64,000 nt of DNA from a virus, in the IMG/VR virus record IMGVR_UViG_3300045988_062804; one strand, 5' to 3'. Within the stretch, counting starts at the first letter, position 1. Every line of letters starts with the position of its first letter. Under the pieces are notes generated by a model. That model saw only the letters and a program-made list of their open reading frames with translations, ran no database searches and was not told where the DNA came from. A program made the position numbers and the translations under genes. This document shows, piece by piece, positions 4,017 to 52,449 of the stretch.

Positions 4017-6184
4017 TGATATATCTAGTAACCAAGCAACAGTCTCTTTGGGCTTCTGACAGATATAAAGTCATTAGTGCTGAAGAGGCTTTAGAACTAT
4101 TGGCACCTCTCAGTGTAGTAGAGCTGGATACTGAAACTATGGGTTTAGACCCGTATACTAAGGAACTATTAACTGTTCAACTTGGTTGTGCAGACTTCCA
4201 GGTAGTTATTGATTGTACATCTGTTGATATACACCTATTTAAGGAGTATATGGAGAATCCACAAAGGATGTTCTTAGGTTGGAATATTAAGTTTGACTTG
4301 AAATTCCTATATCATCAGAGAATCATTCCTATGAGGGTTTATGATGGTTATCTAGCCGAGAAATTACTTTGGTTAGGTTATCCAGCAGGTATGCATGAGA
4401 TGAGCTTGAAAGCTGCTAGTATCAATTATCTAGGAGTAGATATGGATAAGTCTGTACGAGGTAAGATTGTACAGACTGGATTAACAGAAGATGTTATTGT
4501 GTATGCTGCTGGTGATGTCTCTTATCTGGGTAAGATTAGAGATAAGCAACTTGAACAACTCGAAGCTAAAGGCTTATTAAAGGCTATTGACTTTGAAAAT
4601 GAGTTTGTTAAGTGTTTAGCATATATAGAATATTGTGGAGCTAAGTTAGACGTAGGTAAGTGGAGAATTAAAATGACTACTGACCTTAATAACCTTGAGA
4701 GATATGAAGCAGAGCTAAATGATTGGGTAGAGCGTTATTGCCATGAATATGGTGATAAGGGTTATACTATCAATCAAGTTATCCATATTGATAAATGGTA
4801 TAAGACAGAGGATGCACTCAAAGAAGAGAGAGCTAAATTACCTCTTAATGCTGTTAGAGCACCAGAGTTTGATTCTACTGGAGCGAGTCATGACAGTGAA
4901 GCTTATGTCATTAAGCAAACTGGTAACTATTGTTCTGTAAATATGCAGGGTGATTTGTTTAGTGGATTTGATACTAAGCCAAGATGTCATATAAACTGGA
5001 CTAGTTCCCAACAAGTAATCCCATTGTTTGAAGAATTGGGATTGAATCTGAGAGTATTAGACAAGAAGACCAAGCATTATAAGAAGTCTGTGGATATTAA
5101 AGTGGTAGAACCACAAGCATCTAAGAGTCCTCTAATTCCAATATATATAAAGTATAAGAAAGCTGCTATCATTGTTAATACCTTTGGTCAAAAGTTCTTA
5201 AACTTGATAAATCCTGTAACTGGCAGAATACACGCCAATTTCAATCAGTTAGGAACGGATACTGGTAGGTTAAGTTCAACAGAACCTAATCTACAGAATC
5301 TACCACATGATGCTCAGACTAGAGCGTGCTTTGTTTCCGATACAGGTAACAAATGGATTTCAGCCGATTATAGTGGTCAAGAGTCATATCTAATGGCATC
5401 TATGGCTAATGATGAAGCTATGTTGGAAGAACTCACTAATGGTAGTGGTGACTTGCACAGTCTAACCGCCAAGATGGTATTCCAGCAAATCCCAAGGGAT
5501 ATGCCTCTAAAGGATATTAAGAAGAACTTCAAAGACCTAAGGCAAGAAGCCAAAGGTTATGAGTTCTGTTTTAATTATGGTGGTCAAGATAGTACCTTAA
5601 TAAGGAATTATGGTCTTGATGCCAAGAGAGCTAAAGAAATCTATGAGAACTATATGTCAGGTTTTGCTGGCTTAAAGAAGTATCAGGATTTCAGAAGGGT
5701 AGATGTTATGCGTAAAGGTTATATCTTATTAAGTAAGATAACTGGGCATAAGGCATATATCTATGACTATGATGAACTTAAAAGACAGATGGATAAGCAA
5801 GAAGACCCTGAGTTCTGGGCATATTATAGAGAAATGAAGCAGGAAGACCCTGACTGTGACACTGTACAAGGTGTTAGACGTTTAGCAAGACGTAAAGCAG
5901 AGTCTGAGAAGCAGTCTATTAATTATCCTATTCAGGCTGCTGGTGCATTGTGTTTTAAGTTAGCATCTATAAAGCTGTTCAACTGGCTATTAAAGAATGG
6001 CTTGTTATTCAAGGTTAAATATTGTATTCCAGTACATGATGAAATTAATCTTGAAGCTCCAGAAGAGATTTCACAAGAAGTTGCAGATATATTAGTTAAG
6101 TGCATGGTAAGTGCAGGTAAACCATTCTGTACAAGAGCACATTTAGGTGCTGATGTAGAGATTGCAAATTATTGGGTCCATTAA
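4016..6184 (+). CDS. polA: family A DNA polymerase with 3'-5' proofreading exonuclease and no 5'-3' exonuclease domain
   Basis: Exo motifs: VELDTETMGLDP, GWNIKFDLKFLY and YAAGDVSYL. Pol motif A ISADYSGQESYL, motif B RQEAKGYEFCFNYGG, motif C IPVHDEINLE. Confidence 0.95.
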   Translation: MIYLVTKQQSLWASDRYKVISAEEALELLAPLSVVELDTETMGLDPYTKELLTVQLGCADFQVVIDCTSVDIHLFKEYMENPQRMFLGWNIKFDLKFLYHQRIIPMRVYDGYLAEKLLWLGYPAGMHEMSLKAASINYLGVDMDKSVRGKIVQTGLTEDVIVYAAGDVSYLGKIRDKQLEQLEAKGLLKAIDFENEFVKCLAYIEYCGAKLDVGKWRIKMTTDLNNLERYEAELNDWVERYCHEYGDKGYTINQVIHIDKWYKTEDALKEERAKLPLNAVRAPEFDSTGASHDSEAYVIKQTGNYCSVNMQGDLFSGFDTKPRCHINWTSSQQVIPLFEELGLNLRVLDKKTKHYKKSVDIKVVEPQASKSPLIPIYIKYKKAAIIVNTFGQKFLNLINPVTGRIHANFNQLGTDTGRLSSTEPNLQNLPHDAQTRACFVSDTGNKWISADYSGQESYLMASMANDEAMLEELTNGSGDLHSLTAKMVFQQIPRDMPLKDIKKNFKDLRQEAKGYEFCFNYGGQDSTLIRNYGLDAKRAKEIYENYMSGFAGLKKYQDFRRVDVMRKGYILLSKITGHKAYIYDYDELKRQMDKQEDPEFWAYYREMKQEDPDCDTVQGVRRLARRKAESEKQSINYPIQAAGALCFKLASIKLFNWLLKNGLLFKVKYCIPVHDEINLEAPEEISQEVADILVKCMVSAGKPFCTRAHLGADVEIANYWVH

Positions 6185-6212
6185 TATAATTTAACTTATT
6201 AGTGTATCCAGG

Positions 6213-6236
6213 TTTGGTGAAATTTTTATATCTTTG
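6213..6236 (+). promoter_or_regulatory. Bacteroidota-type promoter (-7 box TATCTTTG at 6229-6236; upstream TTTG at 6213-6216)
   Basis: Matches the TAnnTTTG -7 consensus 20 nt upstream of the HNH gene ATG, in one of the few intergenic gaps. Confidence 0.55.
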
Positions 6237-6256
6237 TGTATTAATCAATACATGAT

Positions 6257-6811
6257 ATGGAAGTTTTATCAAGAATTTGTACTAAATGTGGAAGGGAGTT
6301 ACCACTCGAATGCTTCAATAAGTGTTGCACTGGTAAGTACGGTAGACGTGCTATGTGTAGAGAGTGTGAACATAAGATGCAAAATACACCAGAGAGAAGA
6401 GCAAGACGAAGAGAATTGGAAAAACAAAGGAGAGAGAATCCTGAGTATGTAAAGGAGAGAAATATGAAAGATGCTGAAACAAGGCATACCAATATTGACT
6501 CAATTAAAAAAGCAATGGTAAGGGCTGCTAAGAAAAGAGCCTCTACTAAGGGATTAGAGTTTGACATTACATACGAAGATATTGAGCTTCCAAAAGTATG
6601 TCCTCTTCTTGGTATTACTTTAGGAGTCTCTCCTGGAAGGGCTTCTGATTCTTCATACTCCCTGGATAGGATAGATTCATCTAAGGGTTACATCAGAGGT
6701 AATATATGGGTTATCTCTAATAAAGCAAATGTTATTAAAAATAACGCTACCTTAGAAGAGTTAGAATTACTTACACAGAACCTTAAAATTAAATTAGATT
6801 CAATGAAATGA
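6257..6811 (+). CDS. HNH-family endonuclease with N-terminal Cys-rich zinc finger
   Basis: CTKCGRELPLECFNKCCTGKYGRRAMCRECEHK, then SLDRIDSSKGYIRGNIWVISNKANVIKNN. This matches the xLDRID..kGY..gN......N pattern seen in phage HNH endonucleases. Confidence 0.7.
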   Translation: MEVLSRICTKCGRELPLECFNKCCTGKYGRRAMCRECEHKMQNTPERRARRRELEKQRRENPEYVKERNMKDAETRHTNIDSIKKAMVRAAKKRASTKGLEFDITYEDIELPKVCPLLGITLGVSPGRASDSSYSLDRIDSSKGYIRGNIWVISNKANVIKNNATLEELELLTQNLKIKLDSMK

Positions 6812-6826
6812 CCATTGGATACATTA

Positions 6827-7354
6827 ATGCAGACTGAAATTGAAAGAAAGTTCCTAACTACTAACAGCTTGTTCAAAGAGCAGGCTGTTAGGGTTGTGGA
6901 CATACGTCAAGGATACATAGGGGTTACCGATAAGGGAGAAGCTAGAGTATCTATAAGGGATGAGAAGGCATGGATTATAGTCAAGTCCAATGAAAGACTA
7001 TCAAGATTGGAGTATGAAATTCCTATTCCTAAGAAGGATGCAGAGGAATTACTTACAAGAACCTGCGGTAGAGTTATTCATAAGACTCGTTATATTATTC
7101 CAGCAACATCTGGTATGTTGAAATGGGAAGTAGATGAGTTCCATGAAGAGGACGATGGGCTAATTATTGCCGAGATAGAGTTACCATCAGAGGGTACACA
7201 GTTTGATAAACCTCAATGGCTTGGTAAAGAAGTGACACAAGATAGTACTTATTATAACTCTACACTCTCTAAGACGCCTTGGAAAGCTATTCAGAAGTCA
7301 CGTGCTGAAGCTAAAGCCTGGGATGATTGGAGAGATTCATTAGTAAAGAAATGA
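6827..7354 (+). CDS. CYTH-domain protein (triphosphate tunnel metalloenzyme; CyaB/ThTPase-like)
   Basis: N-terminal EIERKFL (ExExK signature) and WEVDEFHEEDDGLIIAEIELPSE. I prefer the ATG at 6827 to the listed TTG at 6815. Confidence 0.8.
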   Translation: MQTEIERKFLTTNSLFKEQAVRVVDIRQGYIGVTDKGEARVSIRDEKAWIIVKSNERLSRLEYEIPIPKKDAEELLTRTCGRVIHKTRYIIPATSGMLKWEVDEFHEEDDGLIIAEIELPSEGTQFDKPQWLGKEVTQDSTYYNSTLSKTPWKAIQKSRAEAKAWDDWRDSLVKK

Positions 7355-7617
7355 AGTATAGGAAGAAACCAGTTATCATTGAAGCTATACAGTTTGAAGA
7401 CAATGCAGATTGTATATTAGCTATTCATGAGTTTATGGGGCAGGAAACTACAAGAGTCAACTATGAGGATAAAGACAATCCTTATATAAAGATTGAAACT
7501 CTTGAAGGTACTATGAAAGCCTCAGTCGGAGATTATATCATCAAAGGTGTGAACGGAGAGTTCTATCCTTGTAAGCCAGATATATTTGAGAAAACTTATG
7601 AGGAAGTTACTGAATGA
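7351..7617 (+). CDS. hypothetical protein (88 aa)
   Basis: ATG at 7351 forms an ATGA overlap with the CYTH stop; the listed start at 7327 is a TTG. The sequence KKPVIIEAIQF...GDYIIKG..GEFYPCKPDIFEKTYEEV looks like a common small phage protein family. Confidence 0.6.
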   Translation: MKYRKKPVIIEAIQFEDNADCILAIHEFMGQETTRVNYEDKDNPYIKIETLEGTMKASVGDYIIKGVNGEFYPCKPDIFEKTYEEVTE

Positions 7618-8477
7618 AGCTGATTAAACCATCATTTGAAATACTAGAACAAAAGCCTGGATTAGATGGGCTGTTACAACATATAGAAAGATGTGGTAGA
7701 ACCTGTTATAAGTCAGAAGACAAAATAACAGAAGAAAGTGCTCCTAAGTTTGTAGATATGTTAGTCAAACGTGGTCATACTGCAATGGTTGAGCATGGTA
7801 CTGTATATTTGAAGTATGATATTATTGAACATGGTTCTATGAACCTCCCAAATAAGTATCACTTCAATGAGTATTCTGTAGTAACTATCAATAATGAACC
7901 TCTTCATGGATATGAAATTCCAGAATATAGAGAGAAGTTCAACGGGCACACATATGCTTATATAACTACCAACTATAGAGTATTACTTCAGAATGACTGG
8001 CTGGACGACCTTAAATATCAATGTGAGCCTACAGAGCATCACGTTAAACGTGTTACTGTTAAGTTTGTATGTGATAGAGGAGTTAGTCATGAGTTTGTAA
8101 GGCATAGAGTATTCAGCTTTGCTCAAGAAAGCACTCGTTACTGTAACTATTCTAAGGACAAGTTTGGAAATGAATTGACTTTCATTGAGCCTTGTTGGGA
8201 TTGGGGTAGTGTAACTAGGGATGGGTTCGTTGCTTTCCAGACAGCTTTAGTTGAGGCAGAAAATATGTACCTTTACCTATTGCAGAATGGATGGAAACCT
8301 CAACAGGCTAGAGCTATACTTCCTAACAGCTTAAAGACCGAGTTAATTATGACTGGCACTATTAAACAATGGGAAGGGTTCTTCAAGTTGAGAGATGCTA
8401 AGGATGCTCACCCTCAAGCAAGAGAGTTGGCACAACCACTGCATGAAGAATTTATTAAGAGGGGCTATATAAAATGA
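7614..8477 (+). CDS. thyX: flavin-dependent thymidylate synthase ThyX
   Basis: ThyX signature RHRVFSFAQESTRY (RHRxxSxxxxSxR). ATGA overlap with the upstream gene. Confidence 0.95.
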   Translation: MKLIKPSFEILEQKPGLDGLLQHIERCGRTCYKSEDKITEESAPKFVDMLVKRGHTAMVEHGTVYLKYDIIEHGSMNLPNKYHFNEYSVVTINNEPLHGYEIPEYREKFNGHTYAYITTNYRVLLQNDWLDDLKYQCEPTEHHVKRVTVKFVCDRGVSHEFVRHRVFSFAQESTRYCNYSKDKFGNELTFIEPCWDWGSVTRDGFVAFQTALVEAENMYLYLLQNGWKPQQARAILPNSLKTELIMTGTIKQWEGFFKLRDAKDAHPQARELAQPLHEEFIKRGYIK

Positions 8478-9516: not shown

Positions 9517-10167
9517 ATGAAAGAACAGAAGTTTGAATTTAGTGCTAAGAACACTTTCTTTACCTCTGACTCCCACTTTGGTCATGCTAACATTATAAAG
9601 TTATGCAATAGACCATTTAAGGATGTTGAGGAGATGAATGAAAAGTTGATTGAGAACTGGAATAAAGTAGTCCCAGAGGACGGTACAGTCTTCCACTTGG
9701 GAGATTTTGCCTTCGGTGGTAGTGGACTATGGAACAGTGTTATCCCTCGTCTGAATGGACAAATCTACTTGATTATAGGTAATCATGATAGAAAGAATCT
9801 AAGGCAAGGTTACATGGATAAGTTTGCAGATGTATTACCGCAGATGCAGATTCAAATAGAGAAGAGAAGTATCTACTTGAATCATTATCCATTCCTGTGT
9901 TATGGAGGTTCATATCGTAACGATGCTGATGCTGTATGGCAGTTATTCGGTCACGTTCATTCTGGTCCTATTAGTTCTGGATTGGATTGTGATAGGTTAG
10001 TTCATCTATTCCCATATCAGTATGATGTGGGTGTAGATAACAATAACTATACTCCAATCTCTTGGGAAGAAGTAAAGACAAAGATTCAGCGCCAAATAGA
10101 TGAAGGAGTAGAGAAATCTGTCAAGGAGCACACAATCCCTGACGAAGTGTATAAACTAAATGACTAA
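9517..10167 (+). CDS. calcineurin-like metallophosphoesterase
   Basis: Ordered MPP motifs: TSDSHFGH, LGDFAFGG, IGNHD, NHYP, GHVHSG. Confidence 0.85.
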   Translation: MKEQKFEFSAKNTFFTSDSHFGHANIIKLCNRPFKDVEEMNEKLIENWNKVVPEDGTVFHLGDFAFGGSGLWNSVIPRLNGQIYLIIGNHDRKNLRQGYMDKFADVLPQMQIQIEKRSIYLNHYPFLCYGGSYRNDADAVWQLFGHVHSGPISSGLDCDRLVHLFPYQYDVGVDNNNYTPISWEEVKTKIQRQIDEGVEKSVKEHTIPDEVYKLND

Positions 10168-10378: not shown

Positions 10379-10673
10379 AAGGCTAGAAGCTGGTGAGTCA
10401 TTTATCACCAGTGAGCCAGGTAACTCAATGCTTCCGTTATATAAAAGTAATGAGAAGCATTTGGTTACTCCTGTTAAGTGGGAAGATTGTAAGGTAGGTG
10501 ATGTAGTGTTCTGTAAGGTTAGAGGTTCATGTGTAACTCATAAGGTTTATGCAGTAGACAATGAGAAGGGTTGCTTAATAGGTAACAACAAAGGACACAT
10601 GAACGGCTGGACTAAGAATGTATACGGACTTGCTCATAAAATTGACCAATCATTAAAGACTAAGAAAGCTTGA
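10350..10673 (+). CDS. stand-alone S24/S26-like serine peptidase domain (LexA/UmuD/signal-peptidase fold)
   Basis: EPGNSMLPLY (GxSMxP nucleophile motif), VGDVVF, and a downstream THKVY lysine. There is no DNA-binding domain. Confidence 0.5.
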   Translation: MNPNTLRKIKRLEAGESFITSEPGNSMLPLYKSNEKHLVTPVKWEDCKVGDVVFCKVRGSCVTHKVYAVDNEKGCLIGNNKGHMNGWTKNVYGLAHKIDQSLKTKKA

Positions 10674-11365
10674 AAATATGTGTAACGTCTGACTTGCATG
10701 GTATTCTTCCTAAAATAGAAGAGCCTTGTGAGGTAGTATTGATATGTGGAGATATTATACCACTGCGTATGCAGAGGAACATCCCTCAGAGTGAAAAGTG
10801 GCTAAAGACCACATTCGCTGATTGGGTTAATAATCTCCCATGTGAATCAGTAATCATGGTGGGAGGTAATCATGACTTTGCCCTAGCTAATATGTATAGG
10901 CAACCTCTAAAGATTAGCTCAATATTGAGTAATCCTACTAATGGTAAACTTGAGTTATTAGATAATGAAGAAACATCCGTCATTAGTAAGGATGGTAAGA
11001 TATATAGTATATGGGGAACTCCATATTGTAAAATCTTTGGTAACTGGGCATATATGTATGAACCAGAGACATTGATTAAAGCATATGAATCTATGCCCCA
11101 GTATTGTGATATTGTTATATCTCACGATGCACCCAAATTGTGTGGGCTTGGTGTTATTCACCAAAGGTTTGACAGGGAGGATGCAGGTAATCCTTGGTTA
11201 GCTGATGAGATGCTTCGTAAACATCCTAGATATACATTCTGTGGACATATTCATAGTGGTGAGCATACACTGCAAACCTTTGATGATATGAAAATGGCTA
11301 ATGTGTCTTTAGTAGATGAAACTTACACTGAAACTTTTAAACCTTTATACCTCGATGTCGAATAA
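10670..11365 (+). CDS. calcineurin-like metallophosphoesterase (TTG start)
   Basis: MPP motifs: VTSDLHG, CGDIIP, GGNHD, SHDAP, GHIHSG. Motif I lies 5 codons after the TTG at 10670 (cTTGA overlap). No in-frame ATG precedes it, so the TTG start is required. Confidence 0.85.
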   Translation: MKICVTSDLHGILPKIEEPCEVVLICGDIIPLRMQRNIPQSEKWLKTTFADWVNNLPCESVIMVGGNHDFALANMYRQPLKISSILSNPTNGKLELLDNEETSVISKDGKIYSIWGTPYCKIFGNWAYMYEPETLIKAYESMPQYCDIVISHDAPKLCGLGVIHQRFDREDAGNPWLADEMLRKHPRYTFCGHIHSGEHTLQTFDDMKMANVSLVDETYTETFKPLYLDVE

Positions 11366-11564
11366 TAAAGTTGTAGTACAAGGAGGAGTTGGATTCCCTG
11401 GATTGTTGTTTATAGTACTGTTAGTTTGTAAACTATTTGGTGCTAACATAACATGGTTCTGGGTATTTGCTCCATTATGGATTCCTCTTGCATTAGTGGC
11501 AGGATTCTTCTTAGTATCAATTCTAATTGCAATATTTGTAGCATGGAAAAGAAAACTACTTTAG
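11355..11564 (+). CDS. small membrane protein (69 aa, two predicted TM helices)
   Basis: MSNNKVVVQGGVGFPGLLFIVLLVCKLF...WVFAPLWIPLALVAGFFLVSILIAIFVAW. I prefer the ATG at 11355 to 11316, which lies inside the upstream gene. Confidence 0.55.
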   Translation: MSNNKVVVQGGVGFPGLLFIVLLVCKLFGANITWFWVFAPLWIPLALVAGFFLVSILIAIFVAWKRKLL

Positions 11565-12124
11565 TAGTTGTGGACTTCCAGTATGACTTCTGTCTACTGG
11601 GAGCACCACTCTACGTTCCTGGGTCTGATAAGGCTCTGTGGAACATTTCTCATTTAATTGAGAATAAGAAAGTTGATAGAGTGATATTCACTGCTGATTG
11701 GCATCCAGCTAATCACTGTTCATTCAAAAGGAATGGTGGTAAATGGAATGACCATTGTATGCAGTTCTCTAAAGGAGCAGCTATACATGATTTGTTATTG
11801 TATGGTTGTATAGGTGCTAGTATACCCTATGAAGTACTCACTAAAGGGGCTTTACCCAGCTCTGAAGAATACGGAGTTAAGGTAGCTCCTGCTACTATAA
11901 AGGTTAACTATCATACTATCTATAGCCATTCTATGGGTATTGATGTTAACCCAGACGAGCAGGTGGTAGTATGTGGATTGGCAGGTGATTATTGTGTTCT
12001 TGAAACCTTAAAGAACCTAGAACCAATTAAGCCTATGTTATACCTGGATGGTGTAGCATCTCTGGATGGCGGTATGAAACTCAATGAGTATATTGAATCT
12101 AATAACATTATAATATGGTCATAG
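11543..12124 (+). CDS. pncA: nicotinamidase (isochorismatase family)
   Basis: VVVDFQYDF (catalytic Asp), ADWHPANHCSF (metal site) and GLAGDYCVLET (catalytic Cys). I chose the ATG at 11543 (MEKKTTLVVVDF). Confidence 0.9.
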   Translation: MEKKTTLVVVDFQYDFCLLGAPLYVPGSDKALWNISHLIENKKVDRVIFTADWHPANHCSFKRNGGKWNDHCMQFSKGAAIHDLLLYGCIGASIPYEVLTKGALPSSEEYGVKVAPATIKVNYHTIYSHSMGIDVNPDEQVVVCGLAGDYCVLETLKNLEPIKPMLYLDGVASLDGGMKLNEYIESNNIIIWS

Positions 12125-12351
12125 GATTACTTACAATATTGTTAGTACATCTAACTCTTACTTTCATAGGTATTCTTATGGGCAAGTACATACCTAATTT
12201 CGTTGACAAGAAAGATGAGAAGGACGTGGTTGCCTTCTTCTATTGGTGTATCTTTCCTCTATCAAATATAATGGTTATTCTGATAGGTATATCTTATCTA
12301 GTGGATAATAAAGTACACAAATTTTCTAAATATTTAATGAGATGGTTATAA
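12115..12351 (+). CDS. small membrane protein (78 aa, two predicted TM helices)
   Basis: Hydrophobic segments IGLLTILLVHLTLTFIGILMG and FFYWCIFPLSNIMVILIGISYLV. Overlaps both neighbours. Confidence 0.55.
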   Translation: MVIGLLTILLVHLTLTFIGILMGKYIPNFVDKKDEKDVVAFFYWCIFPLSNIMVILIGISYLVDNKVHKFSKYLMRWL

Positions 12352-13505
12352 AATCAATCCTTGATACGGACTTGTATAAGTTTACAACTTCGTATGCTTA
12401 CATGAAGCTGTTCCCTCATGCAATAGGGACGTTTGAGTTCTTTGATAGGGACAACACAGAGTACACAGAAGAGTTTGTACAACAACTACAAATGGAAATA
12501 TCCAACTTCTGTTCTCTAAAGTTAACTCACGATGAACAAGACTATATGACGACTCATTGTCGTTTCATTCCTCCAATGTATTGGGAATGGTTGAGTGGAA
12601 TTAGACTCAGTGCTGGTAAAGTACAGATATGGTTAGATGAAGATAAGCATCTCCATATCAAAGCTACTGACTACCTTTACAGAGTAACTCTGTATGAAGT
12701 GCCAATCTTAGCGATAGTATCTGAGCTTCGTAATAGAATGCTCAATCATACTATCAATATGACAGATGTTCTTATTAGACTAGAACCTAAGATAGTTCTT
12801 TCTAATCAGAATCAAATGTTCTTCTCTGAGTTTGGTACTCGTAGACGCTATTCATACAATGTTCAAGAAGCTATAGTAAAGAGTTTGAAAGATAGTGCAG
12901 TATATTGTACTGGTACTTCTAACTGTTACTTGGCAATGAAGTATGATATGTCTATGATTGGAACTCACCCACATGAATGGTTTATGTTCCACGGTGCTAT
13001 GTATGGCTATAAGCAAGCTAATTATATGGCATTGGAAGATTGGGTAAGTGTGTATGATGGTGACTTAGGTATTGCATTGAGTGATACTTATACTTCTGCT
13101 GTATTCTTCAGGAATCTGTCTCGTAAGCAAGCAAAGCTGTTTGATGGTGTGCGTCAGGATAGTGGTGATGAGTTTAAGTTTGTAACAAGTACTATTGCAC
13201 GTTATAAGGAACTTGGAATCGACCCTACTACTAAGACAATTATCTTTAGTAATGCTCTTACATTCGAGAAAGCTCTTGAAATCCGAGAATATTGTAGAGG
13301 ACGTATCCGTTGTGCATTTGGTATTGGAACTAATCTCACTAATGATACTGGACATAGACCTTCCAATATTGTTATGAAATTAACTTCCTGCCAGATGAAT
13401 AAGAATCAACCTGTATTTAACTGTGTTAAACTATCCGATGATTTGGGTAAGCATACTGGTCAGGAACAAGAAGTGGAACACTGTATGAGTGAGCTGGGAT
13501 TATGA
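12342..13505 (+). CDS. pncB: nicotinate phosphoribosyltransferase
   Basis: N-terminal SILDTDLYKFT and FSEFGTRRR, characteristic of NAPRTase. The size (387 aa) fits. Confidence 0.9.
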   Translation: MVIKSILDTDLYKFTTSYAYMKLFPHAIGTFEFFDRDNTEYTEEFVQQLQMEISNFCSLKLTHDEQDYMTTHCRFIPPMYWEWLSGIRLSAGKVQIWLDEDKHLHIKATDYLYRVTLYEVPILAIVSELRNRMLNHTINMTDVLIRLEPKIVLSNQNQMFFSEFGTRRRYSYNVQEAIVKSLKDSAVYCTGTSNCYLAMKYDMSMIGTHPHEWFMFHGAMYGYKQANYMALEDWVSVYDGDLGIALSDTYTSAVFFRNLSRKQAKLFDGVRQDSGDEFKFVTSTIARYKELGIDPTTKTIIFSNALTFEKALEIREYCRGRIRCAFGIGTNLTNDTGHRPSNIVMKLTSCQMNKNQPVFNCVKLSDDLGKHTGQEQEVEHCMSELGL

Positions 13506-13684
13506 AGTGGGAATATAATAAGGTTAGCTCATCATGTGAGCTAACTACTTCTAAGCTAAATGAATTAGGTAAAGAATCGTGGGAACTTGTATCAGTGATG
13601 CAAACCACTTCAGTTAAGTATATTGGCGGGGTTCGTATTGATACTACATCAATGGTTTATTACTTTAAAAGACCAATAGAATGA
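13502..13684 (+). CDS. DUF4177-like small protein
   Basis: MKWEYNKV...LNELGKESWELVSV...YYFKRP pattern. ATGA overlaps on both sides. Confidence 0.5.
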   Translation: MKWEYNKVSSSCELTTSKLNELGKESWELVSVMQTTSVKYIGGVRIDTTSMVYYFKRPIE

Positions 13685-14532
13685 GAGAATTAAATTATGA
13701 AAGGGTATTCAATGTTCTCGTCAAAGAGACATCGAATTATATTACTAGGAATCGTCTTAATGCTATGGTTCTTGGGATTAGTGGTGGTATTGATTCAACT
13801 GTAGTGGCAGCTATCTGCCATGAAGTGAGTAAGCAAACTGGCATTCCTCTAGTAGGAAGAAGTCTTCCCATTAAGAATAAGGAAGATGAGTTTGATGTGT
13901 CTAAGCTAGTTGGAGAGGCTTTCTGCAGTGATTTTAAGATTATAAATTTAAGTTTAATAACTAAGAGTTTAGTTGTGGAGCTTAAGGCAGAAGAATGTGC
14001 AGAATTAACTCCTATTGCAAAAGGTAATATTCAGGCTAGGCTTAGAATGATGTATCTATATAACCTTGCTTCAATCCATAAAGGGCTAGTAATGAGTACA
14101 GATAATCAAACTGAATACCAACTTGGATTCTGGACTATTCATGGTGATGTAGGCGATTTCGACCCAATTCAGGGATTGTGGAAGACTGAGGTCTATGGGT
14201 TAGCTGAATGGCTTAAGGACTTCTATTTTACAGATGGGGACGATGTTCATAAGGCTGTAGCTATTAAAGAGTCTATGTCTCTTACTCCTACTGATGGTCT
14301 GGGTATTAGTAGCAGTGATTTAGAACAGATTGGTGCTAAGAGTTATTATGATGTAGACAGAGTATTACAAACTGTTACTTGTAAGGCTTCTCCTGAGAAT
14401 GACAAATTACAGGACGAACTAACGGCTGAACTTGGTCCAGATGTCGTGGGCAAAATCATGCAACGTCGTTTTAATTCTAGATTCAAGAGGTTACTTAGTC
14501 CTATCATAGTACCTAGAGAACTGTATGATTGA
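13681..14532 (+). CDS. nadE: NH3-dependent NAD+ synthetase
   Basis: PP-loop LGISGGIDSTVVA. At 283 aa it has no glutaminase domain. Confidence 0.9.
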   Translation: MRELNYERVFNVLVKETSNYITRNRLNAMVLGISGGIDSTVVAAICHEVSKQTGIPLVGRSLPIKNKEDEFDVSKLVGEAFCSDFKIINLSLITKSLVVELKAEECAELTPIAKGNIQARLRMMYLYNLASIHKGLVMSTDNQTEYQLGFWTIHGDVGDFDPIQGLWKTEVYGLAEWLKDFYFTDGDDVHKAVAIKESMSLTPTDGLGISSSDLEQIGAKSYYDVDRVLQTVTCKASPENDKLQDELTAELGPDVVGKIMQRRFNSRFKRLLSPIIVPRELYD

Positions 14533-14644
14533 CTTCTTAGAGCTAATCCTAGAATTAGTAAATGTTAAATCGTGTAATGAGCTAGTGGCTCTGCTTGTTA
14601 TGGGCGGAGTACTAGCCATTATCTATTATTTGTTTCTTGTATGA
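14525..14644 (+). CDS. tiny membrane protein (39 aa, below ORF-track cutoff)
   Basis: Hand translation gives MIDFLELILELVNVKSCNELVALLVMGGVLAIIYYLFLV. It overlaps the nadE stop and forms an ATGA junction with the next ORF, filling the apparent gap. Confidence 0.4.
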   Translation: MIDFLELILELVNVKSCNELVALLVMGGVLAIIYYLFLV

Positions 14645-14889
14645 AATTATATTATTTATTCTTATTGGTAATGTTCCTCCTCTTTAATAGTTGTGTGGAA
14701 CAGACTCCGAGAACTAAGTCAACTATCCCTATATCAGTTAGGGATACTACTAAGAGGGCAAGTAGGAACCATTTGTGGAACTCTAATACATCAACCTATA
14801 AGAAGACTAAATCCTCATACACTCCGTCTAAGAAAACGTACAAGAGGAAATCTTCTTACAAATCAAGAAGTAGGAGGCATAGGAGATGA
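14641..14889 (+). CDS. predicted lipoprotein / secreted protein with a very basic S/T/K/R/Y-rich tail
   Basis: MKLYYLFLLVMFLLFNSC has a signal peptide ending in Cys. The tail is KKTKSSYTPSKKTYKRKSSYKSRSRRHRR. Confidence 0.5.
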   Translation: MKLYYLFLLVMFLLFNSCVEQTPRTKSTIPISVRDTTKRASRNHLWNSNTSTYKKTKSSYTPSKKTYKRKSSYKSRSRRHRR

Positions 14890-15446
14890 TAGGAGTATTC
14901 TTTGGGTCTTTTGACCCACCCCATATTGGTCATGTTAATATAGTCACAGCTGCACTTAATTCTGGTATTGTTGACAAGGTTATAGTAGTTCCAGCATATA
15001 AGAGTGTATGGAAGAACACCGAAACTAAGTGGGAGTATAGACTCACTATGGCTAAGGAAACCTTTGATAACATTCCTGGAGTAGTTGTGGATGGTATTGA
15101 GTATCGTATCGCTAATGGAGAACCATTACCCACTTATAAGACTATTGAAGCATTAAAAGAGATTTATGGTGAGTTTACTATCGTAACATCTGCTGAGACT
15201 TATAAGGAGATTCCAAGATGGCAGCATGGTGATGAGATACTAAAGGGCAATAAGTTCTTAGTAGTAGATGTAGCACACTTTAATAGTGAGGATATTCCAC
15301 ATGATAAAGTGAAAGTTATCTATGCTCCCGATATTACAATATGCTCTACCGCTATCAGAAAGTGGGTTGATAATGGCAGAATTATAATACCATTTGTAAC
15401 AGATGAAGTAAATTCAATAATTAGAAAACTTGGGCTATACAAATGA
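14886..15446 (+). CDS. nadD: nicotinate-nucleotide (NaMN/NMN) adenylyltransferase
   Basis: GVFFGSFDPPHIGH (GxFxPxHxGH) and C-terminal ICSTAIRKW (ISSTxIR). Confidence 0.9.
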   Translation: MIGVFFGSFDPPHIGHVNIVTAALNSGIVDKVIVVPAYKSVWKNTETKWEYRLTMAKETFDNIPGVVVDGIEYRIANGEPLPTYKTIEALKEIYGEFTIVTSAETYKEIPRWQHGDEILKGNKFLVVDVAHFNSEDIPHDKVKVIYAPDITICSTAIRKWVDNGRIIIPFVTDEVNSIIRKLGLYK

Positions 15447-15976
15447 GTCAAATCTATGTTTCGGGTCCTTGGTCTTTTGCTTCTGGAGTACTGCAAGTAG
15501 TTAAGAGCATAAAGACCCAATCTAAGGGAGATAAGGTAGTTTATAGTGAGAAAGGAACTGAGTATCAGTTCTCTAAACTAGAACAATCCGATTATGTCGT
15601 ATTCGTGTTAGATGGATTTGCATGGCAGCAGAGATTAGAAAGTATTTCTAAGGGAATGCTCTCAGAACTTATATGGTGTATCAATCATAGAGTTCCAATG
15701 TTCTTAGCTTACAAATCAGCTGATGGATTAGGCATATATGCAACTGAAATAGATGACAATTTAACCTTTAAGGGAATTGCAGGTACTGCCAACACCTTCT
15801 ATCAGATTATAAACAATCAGTTTGGGACTATTGTAGCTCCAAATGATACTTCTGGATTTGTTCTGAGTTATCAAGACGCGGATTTAGGAAGCGATTGTGT
15901 ATATCTGAAGGGAGAGTGGATAGCTGACCCATTAGATTTCCTTAATGTTGAACAACCAAAGAGTTACTTTTATTAA
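15443..15976 (+). CDS. nucleoside 2-deoxyribosyltransferase-like / DUF4406-like Rossmannoid protein
   Basis: N-terminal IYVSGPWS (cf. hYhAGP) and SDYVVFVLDGFAW...SKGMLSELIWCINHRVPMFL (cf. D.G...E.G.A.a.gkPv). Matched by eye only. Confidence 0.45.
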   Translation: MSQIYVSGPWSFASGVLQVVKSIKTQSKGDKVVYSEKGTEYQFSKLEQSDYVVFVLDGFAWQQRLESISKGMLSELIWCINHRVPMFLAYKSADGLGIYATEIDDNLTFKGIAGTANTFYQIINNQFGTIVAPNDTSGFVLSYQDADLGSDCVYLKGEWIADPLDFLNVEQPKSYFY

Positions 15977-15977
15977 T

Positions 15978-16520
15978 ATGAAGAACTTTCCTTTATTAGA
16001 CGAGAATGGTAAGGAATGGTGGATTAGCCGTTCTATTGCTGTAACAGGATGTATATTTACATTCCTAAATGGTAAGTGGTGTGTACTAGCCAATAAGAGA
16101 GGTGAAGGTACTCCCGACTTCCAGGGAATGTGGAATATGCCATGTGGTTACTTAGACTTTGATGAAACTACAGCACAAGCTGTGGTTAGAGAGGTCTACG
16201 AAGAGACTGGTGTTAAGGTAAATCCAGAGTACTTACACTTCTGGAAGTTCAATGACTCTCCAACTCAGAATAGGCAGAATGTATCATTCAGATACTATGC
16301 TCTAGTTGATGCACAGCCAGGTAATATCAGTGTAGGTACTGGTAATGACAGAGGTGGTGAAGAAGACGAGGTAGAAGCTATTGGATGGATTCCAGTAGAC
16401 TCTATTGATAAATATCAGTGGGCATTTGGTCACGATGAAATCATTAAGGAGTTTACTGAGTGGATGCACTTAGAGGATGGAGATTTGGATATGCAAGACA
16501 TAGACTTAGACCCAGTATGA
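15978..16520 (+). CDS. Nudix hydrolase
   Basis: Nudix box GYLDFDETTAQAVVREVYEETGV. I prefer the ATG at 15978, just after the upstream stop; 15945 is an alternative. Confidence 0.9.
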   Translation: MKNFPLLDENGKEWWISRSIAVTGCIFTFLNGKWCVLANKRGEGTPDFQGMWNMPCGYLDFDETTAQAVVREVYEETGVKVNPEYLHFWKFNDSPTQNRQNVSFRYYALVDAQPGNISVGTGNDRGGEEDEVEAIGWIPVDSIDKYQWAFGHDEIIKEFTEWMHLEDGDLDMQDIDLDPV

Positions 16521-16897
16521 TATACTTTATAAGTGGACATAGAGACTTAACATGGGAGGAGTTTGCCAAATGGTATGCTCCTGCCATTAGTAGGACTCTT
16601 AGCACAGACAATGGAGCAATATTCGTAGTGGCAGAATGTGATGGTGCTGATAGAATGGCTCAAGATTATTTGCTAGCTTGTGGTGTTCCTCCAAAGAACA
16701 TCAATGTTTATCATATGCTAAAAGCACCTAGATATTTAGCTAATAACAATATACCTACTATAGGTGGATTTACATCTGACCTGCAGCGGGATGAGGCTAT
16801 GACTAAAAACTCCGACTACGACGTTGCCTTTATTCGTAAGGGTAAGGAGTCGTCTGGAACTGCCCAAAACATTCTAAGAAGATGGACAAAGGTATAA
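16517..16897 (+). CDS. SLOG-fold protein (DUF2493 / YpsA-like)
   Basis: MIYFISGHRD, VVAECDGADRMAQDYLLACGV and QRDEAM...DVAFIRKGKESSGTAQNILR follow the GGRD / G.GAD / RN..M...GT pattern of DUF2493. ATGA overlap with the Nudix gene. Confidence 0.45.
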   Translation: MIYFISGHRDLTWEEFAKWYAPAISRTLSTDNGAIFVVAECDGADRMAQDYLLACGVPPKNINVYHMLKAPRYLANNNIPTIGGFTSDLQRDEAMTKNSDYDVAFIRKGKESSGTAQNILRRWTKV

Positions 16898-16904
16898 GGT
16901 GATT

Positions 16905-17090
16905 ATGAACTTGACATGGCTATAAATTTCTAGTAAAGCTAACGCTGATGAGAAAGAAAGGTTTGAAAGGCTCAGATTACACTTTACTAGTCTGTTCCTA
17001 CAACACCCAAAGATGCTCGAAGTCCTGTCTTATAAGGATATAGTACTGAAAGCCAAAGAATTTACTAAAGAATATCTAAAGCATGAATAA
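16905..17090 (+). pseudogene. 61-codon frame interrupted by an in-frame TAA (16923-16925); a possible decayed small gene, or a 25-aa ORF starting at 17013
   Basis: ATG AAC TTG ACA TGG CTA TAA is followed by 54 sense codons (ISSKANADEKERFERLRLHFTSLFLQHPKMLEVLSYKDIVLKAKEFTKEYLKHE). The frame ends overlapping the next ATG. Confidence 0.3.
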
Positions 17091-17592
17091 GTTTATATTC
17101 CTAGACATAGATGGGGTTATGAATAGTAATCTCTTCTATTCAGAAAGAACTCAGGATAAGAGATATGATGAGTGGATTAAAGAGCATCCTCAACACATAG
17201 CTTGGGGTGCTTGCAATATTGACCCAAGAGCAGTAGAAAGGCTGAATAGAATTACTGATGCTACTGGGGCTAAGATTGTTGTATCTTCTACCTGGAGGAG
17301 TGATAGTAATTTGCAAGAAGTGTTTAACCTTGTTGGAATTAAAGAGCCAATACATGACATAACTCCTTTTATGAGGAGTAGACATAGAGGTTCTGAAATC
17401 CAGGAATGGTTAGATAAGCAAACTGAACCTTATCGGTATATAATCTTAGACGATGATACTGATATGTTGGATTGGCAACTACCTTATTTCATTCAATCTG
17501 ATTGGCTGAAATGGGGTTTGAGTGATGAGGATGTTGAACAAGCAATACATATTCTAAATGATACCAATACAGCCGCTAAGGCACATCTATAA
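17083..17592 (+). CDS. HAD-superfamily phosphatase (HAD_SAK-like)
   Basis: FIFLDIDGVMNS (DxDG motif I), VVSSTWR (motif II) and ILDDD. Confidence 0.7.
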   Translation: MNKFIFLDIDGVMNSNLFYSERTQDKRYDEWIKEHPQHIAWGACNIDPRAVERLNRITDATGAKIVVSSTWRSDSNLQEVFNLVGIKEPIHDITPFMRSRHRGSEIQEWLDKQTEPYRYIILDDDTDMLDWQLPYFIQSDWLKWGLSDEDVEQAIHILNDTNTAAKAHL

Positions 17593-49300: not shown

Positions 49301-51004
49301 GATACTGTGTTCTTTGAAACTAACTTGAATGACATTATCTATTCATATGCCTTTGTTAAAGAAAGGAAGAAAGCATACGATGAAATATTGCCAGTGGTTA
49401 AAGCTACTATGGTTGATATGCTTATGGAAGCTAACTTCCAGAACTTGGACATTAAGAATACTATAGGGTACACTAAGGACTATGTAAAGAACAAAATCAT
49501 TGGTCAAACATTAGTCCCAGAGAACCTTAAAGGATTAGCTCATTATATGGGTATGGTTAGAAACTTTACCACTACTGCCGCCTTAGGTTTCTCTCCTAAA
49601 TCTGGTCTATTCCAGATGATGGAAGGCTTCTGGAAGAATGCAGGTAAGGCAATCATTAGACCTATGGGTACTAATCAATTTGGATGGGATGAAGTACAGC
49701 AAGCCATGAAATGGGTAGCTGGTGATATGAAAGACCATTTCAAGATAGTATCGTTAGGAGAGCTGATAAATGAACAGTATGCCATTAATGACTTTGACTC
49801 TAACGTATATGATAAAAGGCTTAGAGGTGAACCTGGCTTGATTAACTTCCAGGGTAAGATGCTGTGGACTACCTCTGCACCTGACTACTTTAATAGAATG
49901 ACTCTATTTGTAGCTCAGATGATAAAGGATGGTTGCATGGATGCTTATTCAATGAAAGGTAATAAGTTAGTCTATGATTGGAAGAAAGATAAGAGATTCT
50001 CTGCATATGCAGCTGGTAATAAAGCTGATTCTAAGTATGGTTATCAGAAGGCTTTATATGAAGCTATGATAGACCAATTTAGAAATGAAGGTTGGAAGAA
50101 TGATAAAGGTCAACCAATCGGCTATGATGATGATTTACCAATGGCTTATACTAATAAGGAAGCTCAGAGTTTGAAATCATTTGCAGACCAAACTTATGGT
50201 TATTACTCACATGAAACTCAAATGATGTTAAAGAGCTACTTCCTCGGTGCTCAGTATATGCAGTTTAGAACTTATTGGTCAGCTTTGAAGAATAGGTACT
50301 TCCTAAAGAGTGGTGTATATTCACAAGGTAATTTCCAACAACTTGTAGACGAGGATGGTAATAAAGTTTATAAGAAACTTGTAACTATTAATGGTGTACA
50401 ACAGTATGTTCAGACTACTGAGAATACAGGTGAACCATTTATGGTGTGGAGAGGTAACTGGCAGGAAGGTATATTCATGTCATTTAGGGATGGATTCAAG
50501 GAAATGCTTGAAGGATTCCGTGATGATGGATTATCTGGAATAGTGAAGGGTGCTAAAGAATTTTGGAACACTAATAACAGTGAACTTAGAAGGGTAAGGC
50601 ACGCCAATTTACAGCAATTCGGATATGATATGGCTCTTTGGGGACTAATTGGTAGCCTACTTGGATACTTCTTAACCCAACTATTAAAGGAGCAACAGAA
50701 GGCTGATAAAGGTCGAGATTTGAGTTGGGGAGATGTAATGCTGAGAGATGCAGAAAGTATCTTCGTTTCCTCACTGATTACCTCAACTGACGATTTAGGT
50801 GCTTTTGAATCAATGCTATCACCTCTTACAGATTGGACCCCACCATCATTCAGAATGTTAACTAATATTTGGAATGATGGTTGTGCAGTGATTACTGGAG
50901 ATAAGGATTTTAGTAAAGCTGTCATAAATAACATCGGTGTACTAAGACAAACTAGAAACTTCTGGTACGATGCTAGTGAGACAGTTGAAAGTGCAATTGA
51001 ATAA
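46385..51004 (+). CDS. 1539-aa giant protein with an N-terminal RecB/Cas4-like PD-(D/E)xK nuclease domain and a C-terminal TM helix
   Basis: GIIDLLVVDSDGQVHIYDYKTSDK (D at 47150-47152, DYK at 47192-47200), followed by YQLAVYRQLL (QxxxY). A hydrophobic MALWGLIGSLLGYFLTQLL lies near aa 1410. Confidence 0.6.
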   Translation: MAKCGYTLLGRSFGSELELNNFLLNNKHSIDLGRISDIVFSLNTKKDEVVSILDGKLSWATKIQSIKRNPNSFLDDEDIDPESVKPYKGVTSAIKLFRQADGVTRFVPEFKIENFKEKCFERWGKDGFSAMEAKLVGKEPGVPVKENEMEGAFKALTTKWDLLGKVGTSLHKVAELFWKGESLSAIVQDDEVKNYLDPVMASHMYSNMEILRDQLIKLHGNGDPNSVKFYPEYVVAGDTQATDDNGNPIKLLGIIDLLVVDSDGQVHIYDYKTSDKAHVDFDSTKKLTFDYQLAVYRQLLESYGLPVSRAMMGIIPLSMQDFDGTTGNFSNITAPITTVNGVKEINIDYRDRNPRLSYDSASAFVTNNVEMVMPVEPVEDIVTKDFVEHMSTGFAKLFPGYKFNRELNEATLEALKRDVRYNASTGKWTLPDLKNPGKTLTFDTQAEAYKALESYHESLLSSKTRATERLIGNIRTAINTGNTNFLPLSNRKIKGHSAGWFIKECSRYCNSEWKVMDVPELTSLGIMLLFNKRAKYFDVLVLDNTPLKTQLKFKKGTSVLGEYASNVELEQRGILALEGIVGNVDLMKAMLALNELPDLFREGKFKLGEIRVLNQKDETGMHTSAWQLMQNFNELTKNGRAGVDNNFTTGKIQFLENYQLAYYNMIQFCALGKEQSKLNNVLSEFETNPIILDHSIENLIKMKKMLEQEYPNLTETKTTDFSSPPGIVYGYLLKAIKDLRGMHYVQEVRDGNKIVLLTDNPDVMASANLRNMYKVTTDGLVHLRTNLNNFAAEMRTAMEKFWKAKGYSTERRNLIGDQLSLFKNMFVTDRDGKIDSRMRVKSPFVDRTLDAAEKEFLTFWLDKLNRYRYQNMSESDLEEMRLDPDSEYYNVPLMEASSATKVQEGGKGLISWFKRKVDQFRNPKEWADRLITGALDSEHNEQLKEDMEKYEMIDMFEYSDNATSRSNALEEHDTVFFETNLNDIIYSYAFVKERKKAYDEILPVVKATMVDMLMEANFQNLDIKNTIGYTKDYVKNKIIGQTLVPENLKGLAHYMGMVRNFTTTAALGFSPKSGLFQMMEGFWKNAGKAIIRPMGTNQFGWDEVQQAMKWVAGDMKDHFKIVSLGELINEQYAINDFDSNVYDKRLRGEPGLINFQGKMLWTTSAPDYFNRMTLFVAQMIKDGCMDAYSMKGNKLVYDWKKDKRFSAYAAGNKADSKYGYQKALYEAMIDQFRNEGWKNDKGQPIGYDDDLPMAYTNKEAQSLKSFADQTYGYYSHETQMMLKSYFLGAQYMQFRTYWSALKNRYFLKSGVYSQGNFQQLVDEDGNKVYKKLVTINGVQQYVQTTENTGEPFMVWRGNWQEGIFMSFRDGFKEMLEGFRDDGLSGIVKGAKEFWNTNNSELRRVRHANLQQFGYDMALWGLIGSLLGYFLTQLLKEQQKADKGRDLSWGDVMLRDAESIFVSSLITSTDDLGAFESMLSPLTDWTPPSFRMLTNIWNDGCAVITGDKDFSKAVINNIGVLRQTRNFWYDASETVESAIE

Positions 51005-51621
51005 TGATTATTGGAATTTCTGGAAAGAAACAATGTGGTAAGGATACCGTATGCAAAATTATTAAGGCATTAGATATATGGAATAGGTACGGAGATGGGG
51101 ATATGCATACATTTGTAAAGATGTTACTTAAGAGTCCAAGTCCTTTAGGCAGTATATGGTACAAGCACGCATATGCTGATAAACTTAAACAAGTCTTAGC
51201 TATTATACTTAACGTAAATGTTAAGGCATTCGAGGATAATATATTTAAGATGTCTAACAGTGAGATAGCTAAACCAGAGGGAGGATATTATACTAATAGA
51301 GAACTTCTACAGAGATTTGGAACTGAGGTAGGTAGGAGTATATCTCCAACATTGTGGGTAGATGCTTTATTCATGGGCTACAGTGAGGACGACCACTGGA
51401 TTATTCCAGATGTTAGGTTTCCATCTGAAGCTGAAGCTATTAAGGAAAGGGGTGGTATAATCATTAGAGTAGATAGGGAAACCTTCTCTCGTGATACCCA
51501 TCCATCTGAAGTGGCATTGGATAATTATGAAGGTTTTGATTACAGAATAGATAACAATAACGATATAGAACATTTAATAGATAGGGTGAAAGGGATAATG
51601 TCCCAACTAAACCTTATATAA
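51004..51621 (+). CDS. deoxynucleoside monophosphate kinase
   Basis: MIIGISGKKQCGKDT P-loop and IIPDVRFPSEAEAIKERGGIIIRVDR, typical of phage dNMP kinases. Confidence 0.65.
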   Translation: MIIGISGKKQCGKDTVCKIIKALDIWNRYGDGDMHTFVKMLLKSPSPLGSIWYKHAYADKLKQVLAIILNVNVKAFEDNIFKMSNSEIAKPEGGYYTNRELLQRFGTEVGRSISPTLWVDALFMGYSEDDHWIIPDVRFPSEAEAIKERGGIIIRVDRETFSRDTHPSEVALDNYEGFDYRIDNNNDIEHLIDRVKGIMSQLNLI

Positions 51622-52429: not shown

Positions 52430-52449
52430 GCCTCCCTTATTTTTTTTTA
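52405..52449. terminator. bidirectional rho-independent terminator at the convergent junction
   Basis: AAGGGAGGC-GTGA-GCCTCCCTT is a 9-bp GC-rich stem. T9 follows on the + strand and TTGTTGTTTT on the - strand. It overlaps the stop codons of both flanking genes. Confidence 0.8.

Follow-up and report, generated by a model that had tools for sequence, protein, structure and literature searches.

Positions 11543-16897 of a viral DNA stretch of 64,000 nucleotides (nt) (IMG/VR record IMGVR_UViG_3300045988_062804; the whole stretch is called the window below) carry a plus-strand gene cluster that is predicted to turn nicotinamide into NAD+ by way of nicotinate. At a probability of roughly 0.55, we read this cluster as a working, phage-borne nicotinamide salvage operon, which would maintain NAD+ in the infected cell or counter its depletion. 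The four-step chemistry, taken jointly, is very probable. A PncA-like nicotinamidase of 193 amino acids (aa), with a MEKKTT start (11543-12124), would convert nicotinamide to nicotinate and NH3. PncB, a nicotinate phosphoribosyltransferase of 387 aa (12342-13505), would combine nicotinate with phosphoribosyl pyrophosphate (PRPP), in an ATP-stimulated reaction, to give nicotinate mononucleotide (NaMN). A NadD-like NaMN adenylyltransferase of 186 aa (14886-15446) would use ATP to convert NaMN to nicotinate adenine dinucleotide (NaAD), from which NadE, a single-domain NAD+ synthetase of the NH3-dependent type (283 aa; 13681-14532), would make NAD+ at the expense of ATP and NH3.

The first-pass annotation, made from the letters alone, had named these four families from eight short motifs. 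All eight strings are present in the translations of the open reading frames (ORFs): LVVVDFQYDF, ADWHPANHCSF and GDYCV in PncA, ILDTDLYKFT and FGTRRR in PncB, SGGIDS in NadE, and GSFDPPHIGH and CSTAIR in NadD. Pfam, NCBIfam and PDB searches also place each ORF in the family proposed for it, at levels far above chance. By its profile scores the 12342-13505 ORF is unambiguously a PncB: it is above the cut-offs of NF003704 (438 bits versus 379) and TIGR01514 (415 bits versus 269.55), has both Pfam domains (NAPRTase_N and NAPRTase), and matches PDB entry 2im5 over residues 2-387 (403 bits), GTHPHEW motif included; all its matches among PDB sequences are NAPRTases. A weak 48-bit match of PncB to the PHROG Nampt family is the only Nampt-family signal in the cluster. 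NadE is also above its cut-off (TIGR00552, 129.8 bits versus 63.65). Its match to Pfam NAD_synthase (133.9 bits) extends over residues 11-271, i.e. model positions 3-240 of 242, its PDB matches are NAD synthetases, and its SGGIDS P-loop aligns to 3p52; no glutaminase or other extra domain was found in its 283 aa.

PncA and NadD exceed their Pfam cut-offs (Isochorismatase, 35 bits versus 27; CTP_transf_like, 48.5 bits versus 21) and fall below those of the NCBIfam equivalogs. For PncA, the single NCBIfam match is the nicotinamidase/pyrazinamidase model NF008623 (59 bits, cut-off 174), and the PDB sequences retrieved are nicotinamidases only, one of them deposited under a generic alpha/beta-hydrolase-like name; the best are 3r2j (E = 2.5e-18) and 1ilw (E = 1.2e-15)/1im5, followed by 2h0r, 3pl1 and 2wt9. 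An alignment of 11 phage homologues, 32-48% identical to the window protein, shows no change at residues D11, K101 and C151 or at D52, H54 and H71, and these residues align with the corresponding motifs of 1ilw and 3r2j. From the Pyrococcus horikoshii and Mycobacterium tuberculosis PncA structures, we take the first three to be the catalytic triad and the others to be the metal site. For NadD, the top NCBIfam matches are all NadD (best TIGR00482, 89.9 bits, cut-off 112.45), and 15 of 17 PDB matches are NaMN adenylyltransferases. The protein aligns end-to-end with structures 1kam, 8aih and 2h29, GSFDPPHIGH and ICSTAIR falling on the two signature motifs. These alignments support four catalytically intact enzymes which together would complete the route from nicotinamide to NAD+.

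The cluster is compact. Its ten ORFs each overlap or abut the next, through 4-nt ATGA overlaps (at 13502, 13681, 14886, 15443 and 16517) or 10-nt overlaps (at 12115 and 12342), and the sole gap in the run is one of 108 nt (14533-14640). The claim that the pathway forms a single cluster thus stands as regards the tight packing of the four enzyme genes on one strand; it had overlooked three further conserved genes (15443-16897), and three small ORFs are interleaved with those of the enzymes.

The phage nature of the window is indicated by its family-A DNA polymerase (PolA), 55% identical to that of crAss-like phage cr111_1 and 49% identical to that of Bacteroides phage crAss001. Other window genes encode polynucleotide kinase, thymidylate synthase (ThyA), uracil-DNA glycosylase (UDG) and deoxynucleoside monophosphate (dNMP) kinase; two ORFs are giant (2896 and 3178 aa), and the coding strand switches near 52 kb. 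The related contigs measure 87-190 kb, many of them ~185-190 kb, a size range which fits the large-genome crAss-like groups described by Yutin et al. 2021 (PMC7886860). The carrier is a large crAss-like phage of Bacteroidales and, we infer, belongs to such a large-genome group.

A scan of IMG/VR gave 105 stretches encoding a PncB relative, and 81 loci, GenBank MT835470 among them, were examined. The pathway is kept as a set in most: 70 of the 81 have PncA, PncB, NadE and NadD together on one strand. Of the other 11 loci, three are on contigs that are truncated near the cluster or have no NadD, two are on host-like contigs, and six come from phages that are more distant (three on contigs above 350 kb). 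Jumbo contigs L072, L074, L076 and L079 also carry PncA-PncB-NadE. The order PncA-PncB-NadE-NadD is identical in all 14 loci with tabulated positions. Identities among loci range up to 97% and go down to 29% for PncA, 28% for NadD and 35% for NadE; fixed order and presence in spite of such low values indicate that purifying selection has long acted on the whole pathway. The comparison supports the view that the cluster is of old date and has been kept widely within its phage clade.

The operon was assembled and maintained in the phage lineage rather than captured en bloc from a host, since pncB is not clustered in the hosts and the PncBs of the phages branch apart from those of the hosts. The pncB genes of Bacteroides, Phocaeicola and Parabacteroides encode proteins 64-69% identical to the phage PncB, and no other cluster protein was detectable within 6 kb of pncB in any of 80 Bacteroidales host loci. 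In a neighbour-joining tree (with arbitrary rooting), the crAss-type phage PncBs fall outside the host clade, except for those of two IMG/VR contigs, L053 and L054 (4.6 and 60 kb). The pncB of these two groups with that of Bacteroides muris and is unaccompanied by other cluster genes; both contigs probably represent host DNA, or the flank of a prophage, that was filed as viral by mistake. The phage PncA is far more divergent from cellular PncA than the phage PncB is from host PncB. Among 50,697 phage records, megablast with the cluster returned only two partial matches (77-80% identity), both unannotated, and the cluster is absent from the INPHARED crAss-like genomes. A tblastn search for YqeY, the gene that nearly adjoins the 3' end of the cluster, did not locate an empty site in named crAss phages, the whole accessory region being clade-specific.

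The three conserved genes that had been overlooked belong, as far as can be judged, to superfamilies linked to NAD or ADP-ribose (ADPR), and the order PncA-PncB-NadE-NadD-(TIR-like)-Nudix-SLOG is conserved in related loci. The gene adjoining nadD (15443-15976) encodes a 177-aa protein, p177, which is distantly TIR-like (TIR/nucleoside-deoxyribosyltransferase superfamily). Its family comprises 127 proteins, from phages only. Five of 10 divergent relatives match Pfam TIR_2 (E = 8e-6 to 3e-4, 22-27 bits, below the 28-bit cut-off), and other relatives touch nucleoside deoxyribosyltransferase and CAP12 TIR models; the window p177 itself matches no TIR profile, and a sequence search with it gave one match, which was spurious. 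The AlphaFold2 model has a predicted local distance difference test score (pLDDT) of 62 overall and ~80 over residues 1-100. With this low-confidence model, Foldseek returned matches of low root-mean-square deviation, among them TIR domains (4c6s, 7djt) and a deoxyribosyltransferase (7o62), with weak E values of at least 3e-3. Glu75, a possible counterpart of the TIR catalytic Glu, is invariant in the p177 alignment. By tblastn the p177 gene is detected in most related loci and is undetected in one subclade.

The next gene encodes a Nudix hydrolase. Its ORF opens at 15945 and the conserved start is Met12, at 15978, which gives a gene at 15978-16520. The Pfam NUDIX match (62 bits) includes a complete Nudix box, and eight homologues all have a Pro exactly 16 residues downstream of it. 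A Pro at this position marks ADP-ribose diphosphatases (Dunn 1999, as summarised in PMC5389931). The protein is possibly such an enzyme, and we take the Pro as a lead and no more. Weak matches to NadM-type Nudix and NrtR models were also seen. PADLOC assigned the Nudix protein only to an unnamed candidate family, PDC-S07, and gave no match for p177, PncA or the last protein of the run.

That last protein, p126 (126 aa; 16517-16897), has, according to its model (pLDDT 93), a SLOG fold of the YspA/DUF2493-like kind and is probably nucleotide-binding. The top Foldseek matches in the PDB are DprA, ShosA, YpsA and LOG (probability 0.95-1.0); in BFVD they are viral proteins (E down to 6e-9), several of them annotated as YspA cpYpsA-related SLOG or DUF2493. 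The p126 family has 1809 members, one named YspA by its source, and the motifs SGHR, GxD, RDxAMT and SGTAQNxxRR are invariant. Sequence profiles are less telling: Pfam YAcAr weakly matches one of 10 members (E = 0.011), and the family profile has no match among PDB sequences.

The SLOG gene of the window nearly adjoins yqeY. In three large gut phage contigs (L163-L165, 255-379 kb; ~5190-7870), a SLOG homologue 47% identical to p126 adjoins YqeY, and the NAD synthesis genes upstream are replaced by a SIR2-family (sirtuin-like) gene of 230 aa and two paralogous genes (147-152 aa) of unknown function. The SIR2-family gene lies four genes upstream of the SLOG-YqeY pair, i.e. in the region which the NAD cluster occupies in the window. 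Since the pair persists in contigs without NAD genes, SLOG may be a mere backbone neighbour; it may stand beside an island of variable content that carries NAD-related genes in both groups of contigs. At the same L163-L165 locations, ribonucleotide reductase genes are split by inteins or LAGLIDADG elements.

The cluster also exists in naturally deleted forms. Among the database homologues of p177 (P0088-P0097, corresponding to window positions 11543-17592) are chimeric ORFs in which the N-terminus of PncA, NadD or NadE is in frame with the C-terminal ~60 residues of p177; in one, p177 runs into YqeY. At locus L162:4168-5295, on a 74.7-kb scaffold, residues 1-93 of PncA are fused to the p177 tail, PncB, NadE and NadD are gone and the Nudix gene is intact; a second fusion joins the first SLOG residues to the C-terminal ~40 residues of a HAD protein. 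In IMG/VR contig L036, NadD through SLOG are likewise missing. The fusion junctions share only 2-4 residues, which makes real microhomology deletions more likely than assembly errors. These variants suggest that the cluster is accessory and was repeatedly lost.

As to what the operon would do, it lies within a block of replication and nucleotide-metabolism genes of the phage, and we infer that it would be co-expressed with the replication genes and would raise or restore the NAD+ of the infected cell; its enzyme activities, the time of its expression and any connection with immunity are predictions. Its special contribution would be the nicotinamidase step, which is absent from at least some Bacteroides hosts, with PncB, NadD and NadE serving to raise the flux. 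Nicotinamide would thereby become usable, both that of the gut lumen and that freed by TIR or SIR2 defence enzymes that cleave NAD+ (NADases). In two strains, Bacteroides thetaiotaomicron 7330 and B. xylanisolvens XB1A, the Preiss-Handler enzymes are encoded alongside active, nicotinamide-releasing TIR NADases (Weagley et al. 2022, PMC9092222). They have no PncA (PMC9092222) and for that reason cannot recycle the nicotinamide. The existence of such strains makes a counter-defence role plausible; as the phage PncA would supply the missing step, the purpose with the best support is reconstitution of NAD+ after NADase attack. It is consistent with the TIR-like, Nudix and SLOG neighbours and with the precedents of the phage pathways NARP1-3. 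Offsetting NAD+ depletion is, in our view, the most likely selective reason for the operon, a generic boost of NAD+ being a close alternative.

Several points weigh against this reading. PncA and NadD are divergent members of their families, and their substrate specificity is deduced from motifs only, as both score below the equivalog cut-offs. The absence of PncA is known from two published host strains, and the hosts have PncB and, according to the literature, the other Preiss-Handler enzymes, which would make three of the four genes redundant. The route has twice the steps of the two-step Nampt route (NARP2) and costs more ATP; the natural in-frame deletion variants, which lack part or all of the cluster, make it appear dispensable. 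Finally, published accounts treat similar phage clusters as metabolic, not anti-defence (PMC11662467, PMC11780533). It is indeed quite possible, if short of probable, that the operon is a general auxiliary metabolic module, drawing more NAD+ from environmental niacin and nicotinamide for replication and for the NAD+-consuming enzymes of the phage, and unrelated in any specific way to NADase immunity. Comparable clusters in jumbo phages (PMC11662467) and gut viral contigs (PMC11780533) were interpreted in this sense, and the reading agrees with the position of the cluster among the PolA, ThyA, UDG and dNMP kinase genes, with its apparent dispensability in natural variants, and with the phage SIR2-family gene, NAD+-using, found in its region in the related large contigs. 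It leaves unexplained the universal retention of the nicotinamidase step and the co-travelling TIR-like, Nudix and SLOG genes; moreover, the phage NAD+ pathways tested by experiment all countered NAD+ depletion. The two roles are not mutually exclusive.

The salvage operon could also be part of something larger. In a seven-gene counter-defence island, nicotinamide recycling would be accompanied by a Nudix enzyme splitting ADPR to AMP and ribose-5-phosphate, which would feed PRPP for PncB, while the TIR-like and SLOG proteins would bind, degrade or mimic TIR-derived ADPR signals; the island would both disarm NADase immunity and repair its effects. The conserved gene order from PncA through SLOG, the invariant Pro past the Nudix box, the TIR_2 matches in half of the divergent p177 homologues tested and the SLOG fold of p126 all speak for it, and there are precedents in NARP operons extended by ADPR-processing enzymes and in phage enzymes that degrade cyclic ADPR signals and feed NAD+ synthesis. 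We consider it rather unlikely nonetheless: SLOG may belong to the backbone only, as it stays paired with YqeY where NAD genes are lacking, the TIR-like gene is undetected in one subclade, the TIR_2 scores are under the gathering cut-off, the p177 model is of low confidence, and PADLOC gives nothing for p177 or p126. Equally tentative is the bolder proposal that the seven conserved genes are a fourth type of phage NAD+ reconstitution and counter-defence, specific to gut crAss-like phages, where PncA would provide the nicotinamidase lacking in Bacteroides hosts and close the deamidated loop from nicotinamide to NAD+, Nudix would recycle ADPR, and the TIR-like and SLOG proteins would intercept TIR/Thoeris-type ADPR signals, the recurrent deletions then reflecting loss on hosts without NADase defences. 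At the other extreme, the pathway might not work at all, its genes being decaying passengers of host origin or bacterial DNA misjoined to phage sequence. The sub-cut-off scores of PncA and NadD, the deletion variants, and the host-type pncB without the rest of the cluster on L053 and L054 could be taken that way. The four ORFs are however full length with intact motifs, their order is kept at 29-97% identity, they are co-directional and embedded between phage genes on 87-190 kb contigs, and no such cluster exists at the host loci. Bacterial contamination and pseudogenisation were rejected on these grounds, and a non-working pathway is highly improbable.

The three small ORFs interleaved with the salvage genes are poorly conserved fillers. 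A hydrophobic one of 78 aa (12115-12351) is variable, lies outside the pathway and is found in 8 of the 81 related loci; it has no above-threshold match in Pfam, NCBIfam or PHROG. The second, of 60 aa (13502-13684), gives weak Sp36/DUF4177-like matches (NF053529, 38 bits, cut-off 50) and is variable too, being present in some relatives only. The third, of 82 aa (14641-14889), has a hydrophobic N-terminus and a very basic C-terminus, is variable and shared with few relatives, and matches no family in the same three databases. Its basic tail is SRSRRHRR; several divergent p177 homologues terminate in KRKHR, KRRHR or KRRHK.

A few other features of the window can be mentioned. Directly upstream of the NAD cluster, two calcineurin-like metallophosphoesterases (9517-10167 and 10670-11365) are kept in nearly all related loci, at 36-99% identity. 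A partial RNA-repair toolkit is scattered over 45-542, 542-1462, 6815-7354 and 17083-17592; its parts are a poly(A) polymerase/CCA-type nucleotidyltransferase head domain, a polynucleotide kinase, a CYTH domain and the HAD domain of ‘Swiss Army Knife’ RNA repair proteins. The presence of these genes in the same genome arm suggests a defence against host systems that cleave tRNAs or other RNAs. In the strand-switch region, an ORF resembling homing endonucleases of the GIY-YIG/T5orf172 and NUMOD1 type (51719-52429) stands between the dNMP kinase gene (51004-51621) and, on the minus strand, a gene for a DUF192 protein (52447-53013). No tRNA was found in the window. A scan for promoters and terminators revealed fewer sigma-70-like sites than in shuffled sequences, Bacteroides promoters being outside the coverage of the models.

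NAD+ depletion is among the commonest abortive-infection strategies of bacteria, and crAss-like phages are the most abundant viruses of the human gut. To our knowledge, three phage NAD+-rebuilding pathways have been proven by experiment so far, all of them outside Bacteroidota. If its predicted function holds, the operon would provide the first reconstitution route of the deamidating kind and would reveal a way in which the dominant phages of the gut withstand NADase immunity. The nicotinamidase step has been linked to host NAD+ metabolism, and phages would then be adding nicotinamidase activity to the gut ecosystem. The enzymes are textbook ones and similar phage clusters have been annotated, so the gain would concern function and ecology and not novel biochemistry; the natural deletion variants already provide material for a comparison.

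With bacterial salvage pathway I (PncA plus the Preiss-Handler enzymes), the phage cluster shares all four enzyme families, the order of the reactions and the catalytic motifs. It differs in being a single compact virus-encoded cluster, whereas pncB is unlinked in the 80 Bacteroidales genomes, and in the divergence of PncA and NadD, which score under their equivalog cut-offs. The first-pass annotation had held that no known phage NAD+ route is deamidating; this was wrong, as phage Preiss-Handler clusters were already published. Li et al. 2024 (PMC11662467) described 174 ‘NAD-jumbo phages’ in which the Preiss-Handler pathway is complete, along with a pncB-nadD-nadE cluster (e.g. Kuafu_71), one clade having predicted Bacteroidota hosts, and mentioned phage pncA in their discussion. 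A 2025 gut-virome study (PMC11780533) reported co-located KEGG orthologues of pncA/pncB, nadD and nadE on human gut viral contigs. The window has what Li et al. define as such a cluster, with pncB, nadD and nadE encoded and clustered on a phage genome (PMC11662467), on a carrier that is not a jumbo phage. Like the NAD-jumbo and gut-contig clusters, it is a phage-encoded, clustered deamidating route, with Bacteroidota hosts in the gut, known from annotation alone. Unlike the NAD-jumbo phages (>200 kb), the carrier is crAss-like, with contigs of ~87-190 kb, and PncA is an integral, always-retained first gene, the conserved TIR-like, Nudix and SLOG genes following the enzymes. A paper on phage PA5oct was rejected as a precedent: it concerns induction of the host pncA-pncB1-nadE, not phage genes. 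The literature searched on crAss combined with NAPRTase, nicotinamide or NAD contains no description of this cluster; the crAss paper of Yutin et al. (PMC7886860) has no mention of NAD, nicotin- or Nudix, and the NARP preprint of Osterman has none of PncA, NadD, NadE or deamidation. Within that literature, the operon in crAss-like phages, the constant PncA, the TIR-like-Nudix-SLOG extension and the deletion variants all appear to be undescribed.

NARP2 and the NadV-NatV pair of KVP40 also lead from nicotinamide to NAD+ with phage-encoded enzymes, and NARP2 was shown to overcome an NAD+-depleting defence. Their route is non-deamidating and takes two steps (Nampt and Nmnat) via NMN, whereas that of the window would take four via nicotinate, with a NAPRTase (438 bits) instead of Nampt and a higher expense of ATP. 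NARP1 (Adps and Namat) and NARP3 (PnuC and NadR) share with the cluster the presumed goal of rebuilding NAD+ during infection; they start from other substrates (ADPR-PP or nicotinamide riboside) and use unrelated enzymes. None of the cluster ORFs matched PRPS-like, Namat, PnuC or NadR families in Pfam, NCBIfam or PHROG and, their defining enzymes being absent, the cluster is not NARP1, NARP2 or NARP3. By analogy with these three pathways, which rebuild NAD+ against NADase defences, it may nevertheless work in the same manner, through a deamidating set of enzymes.

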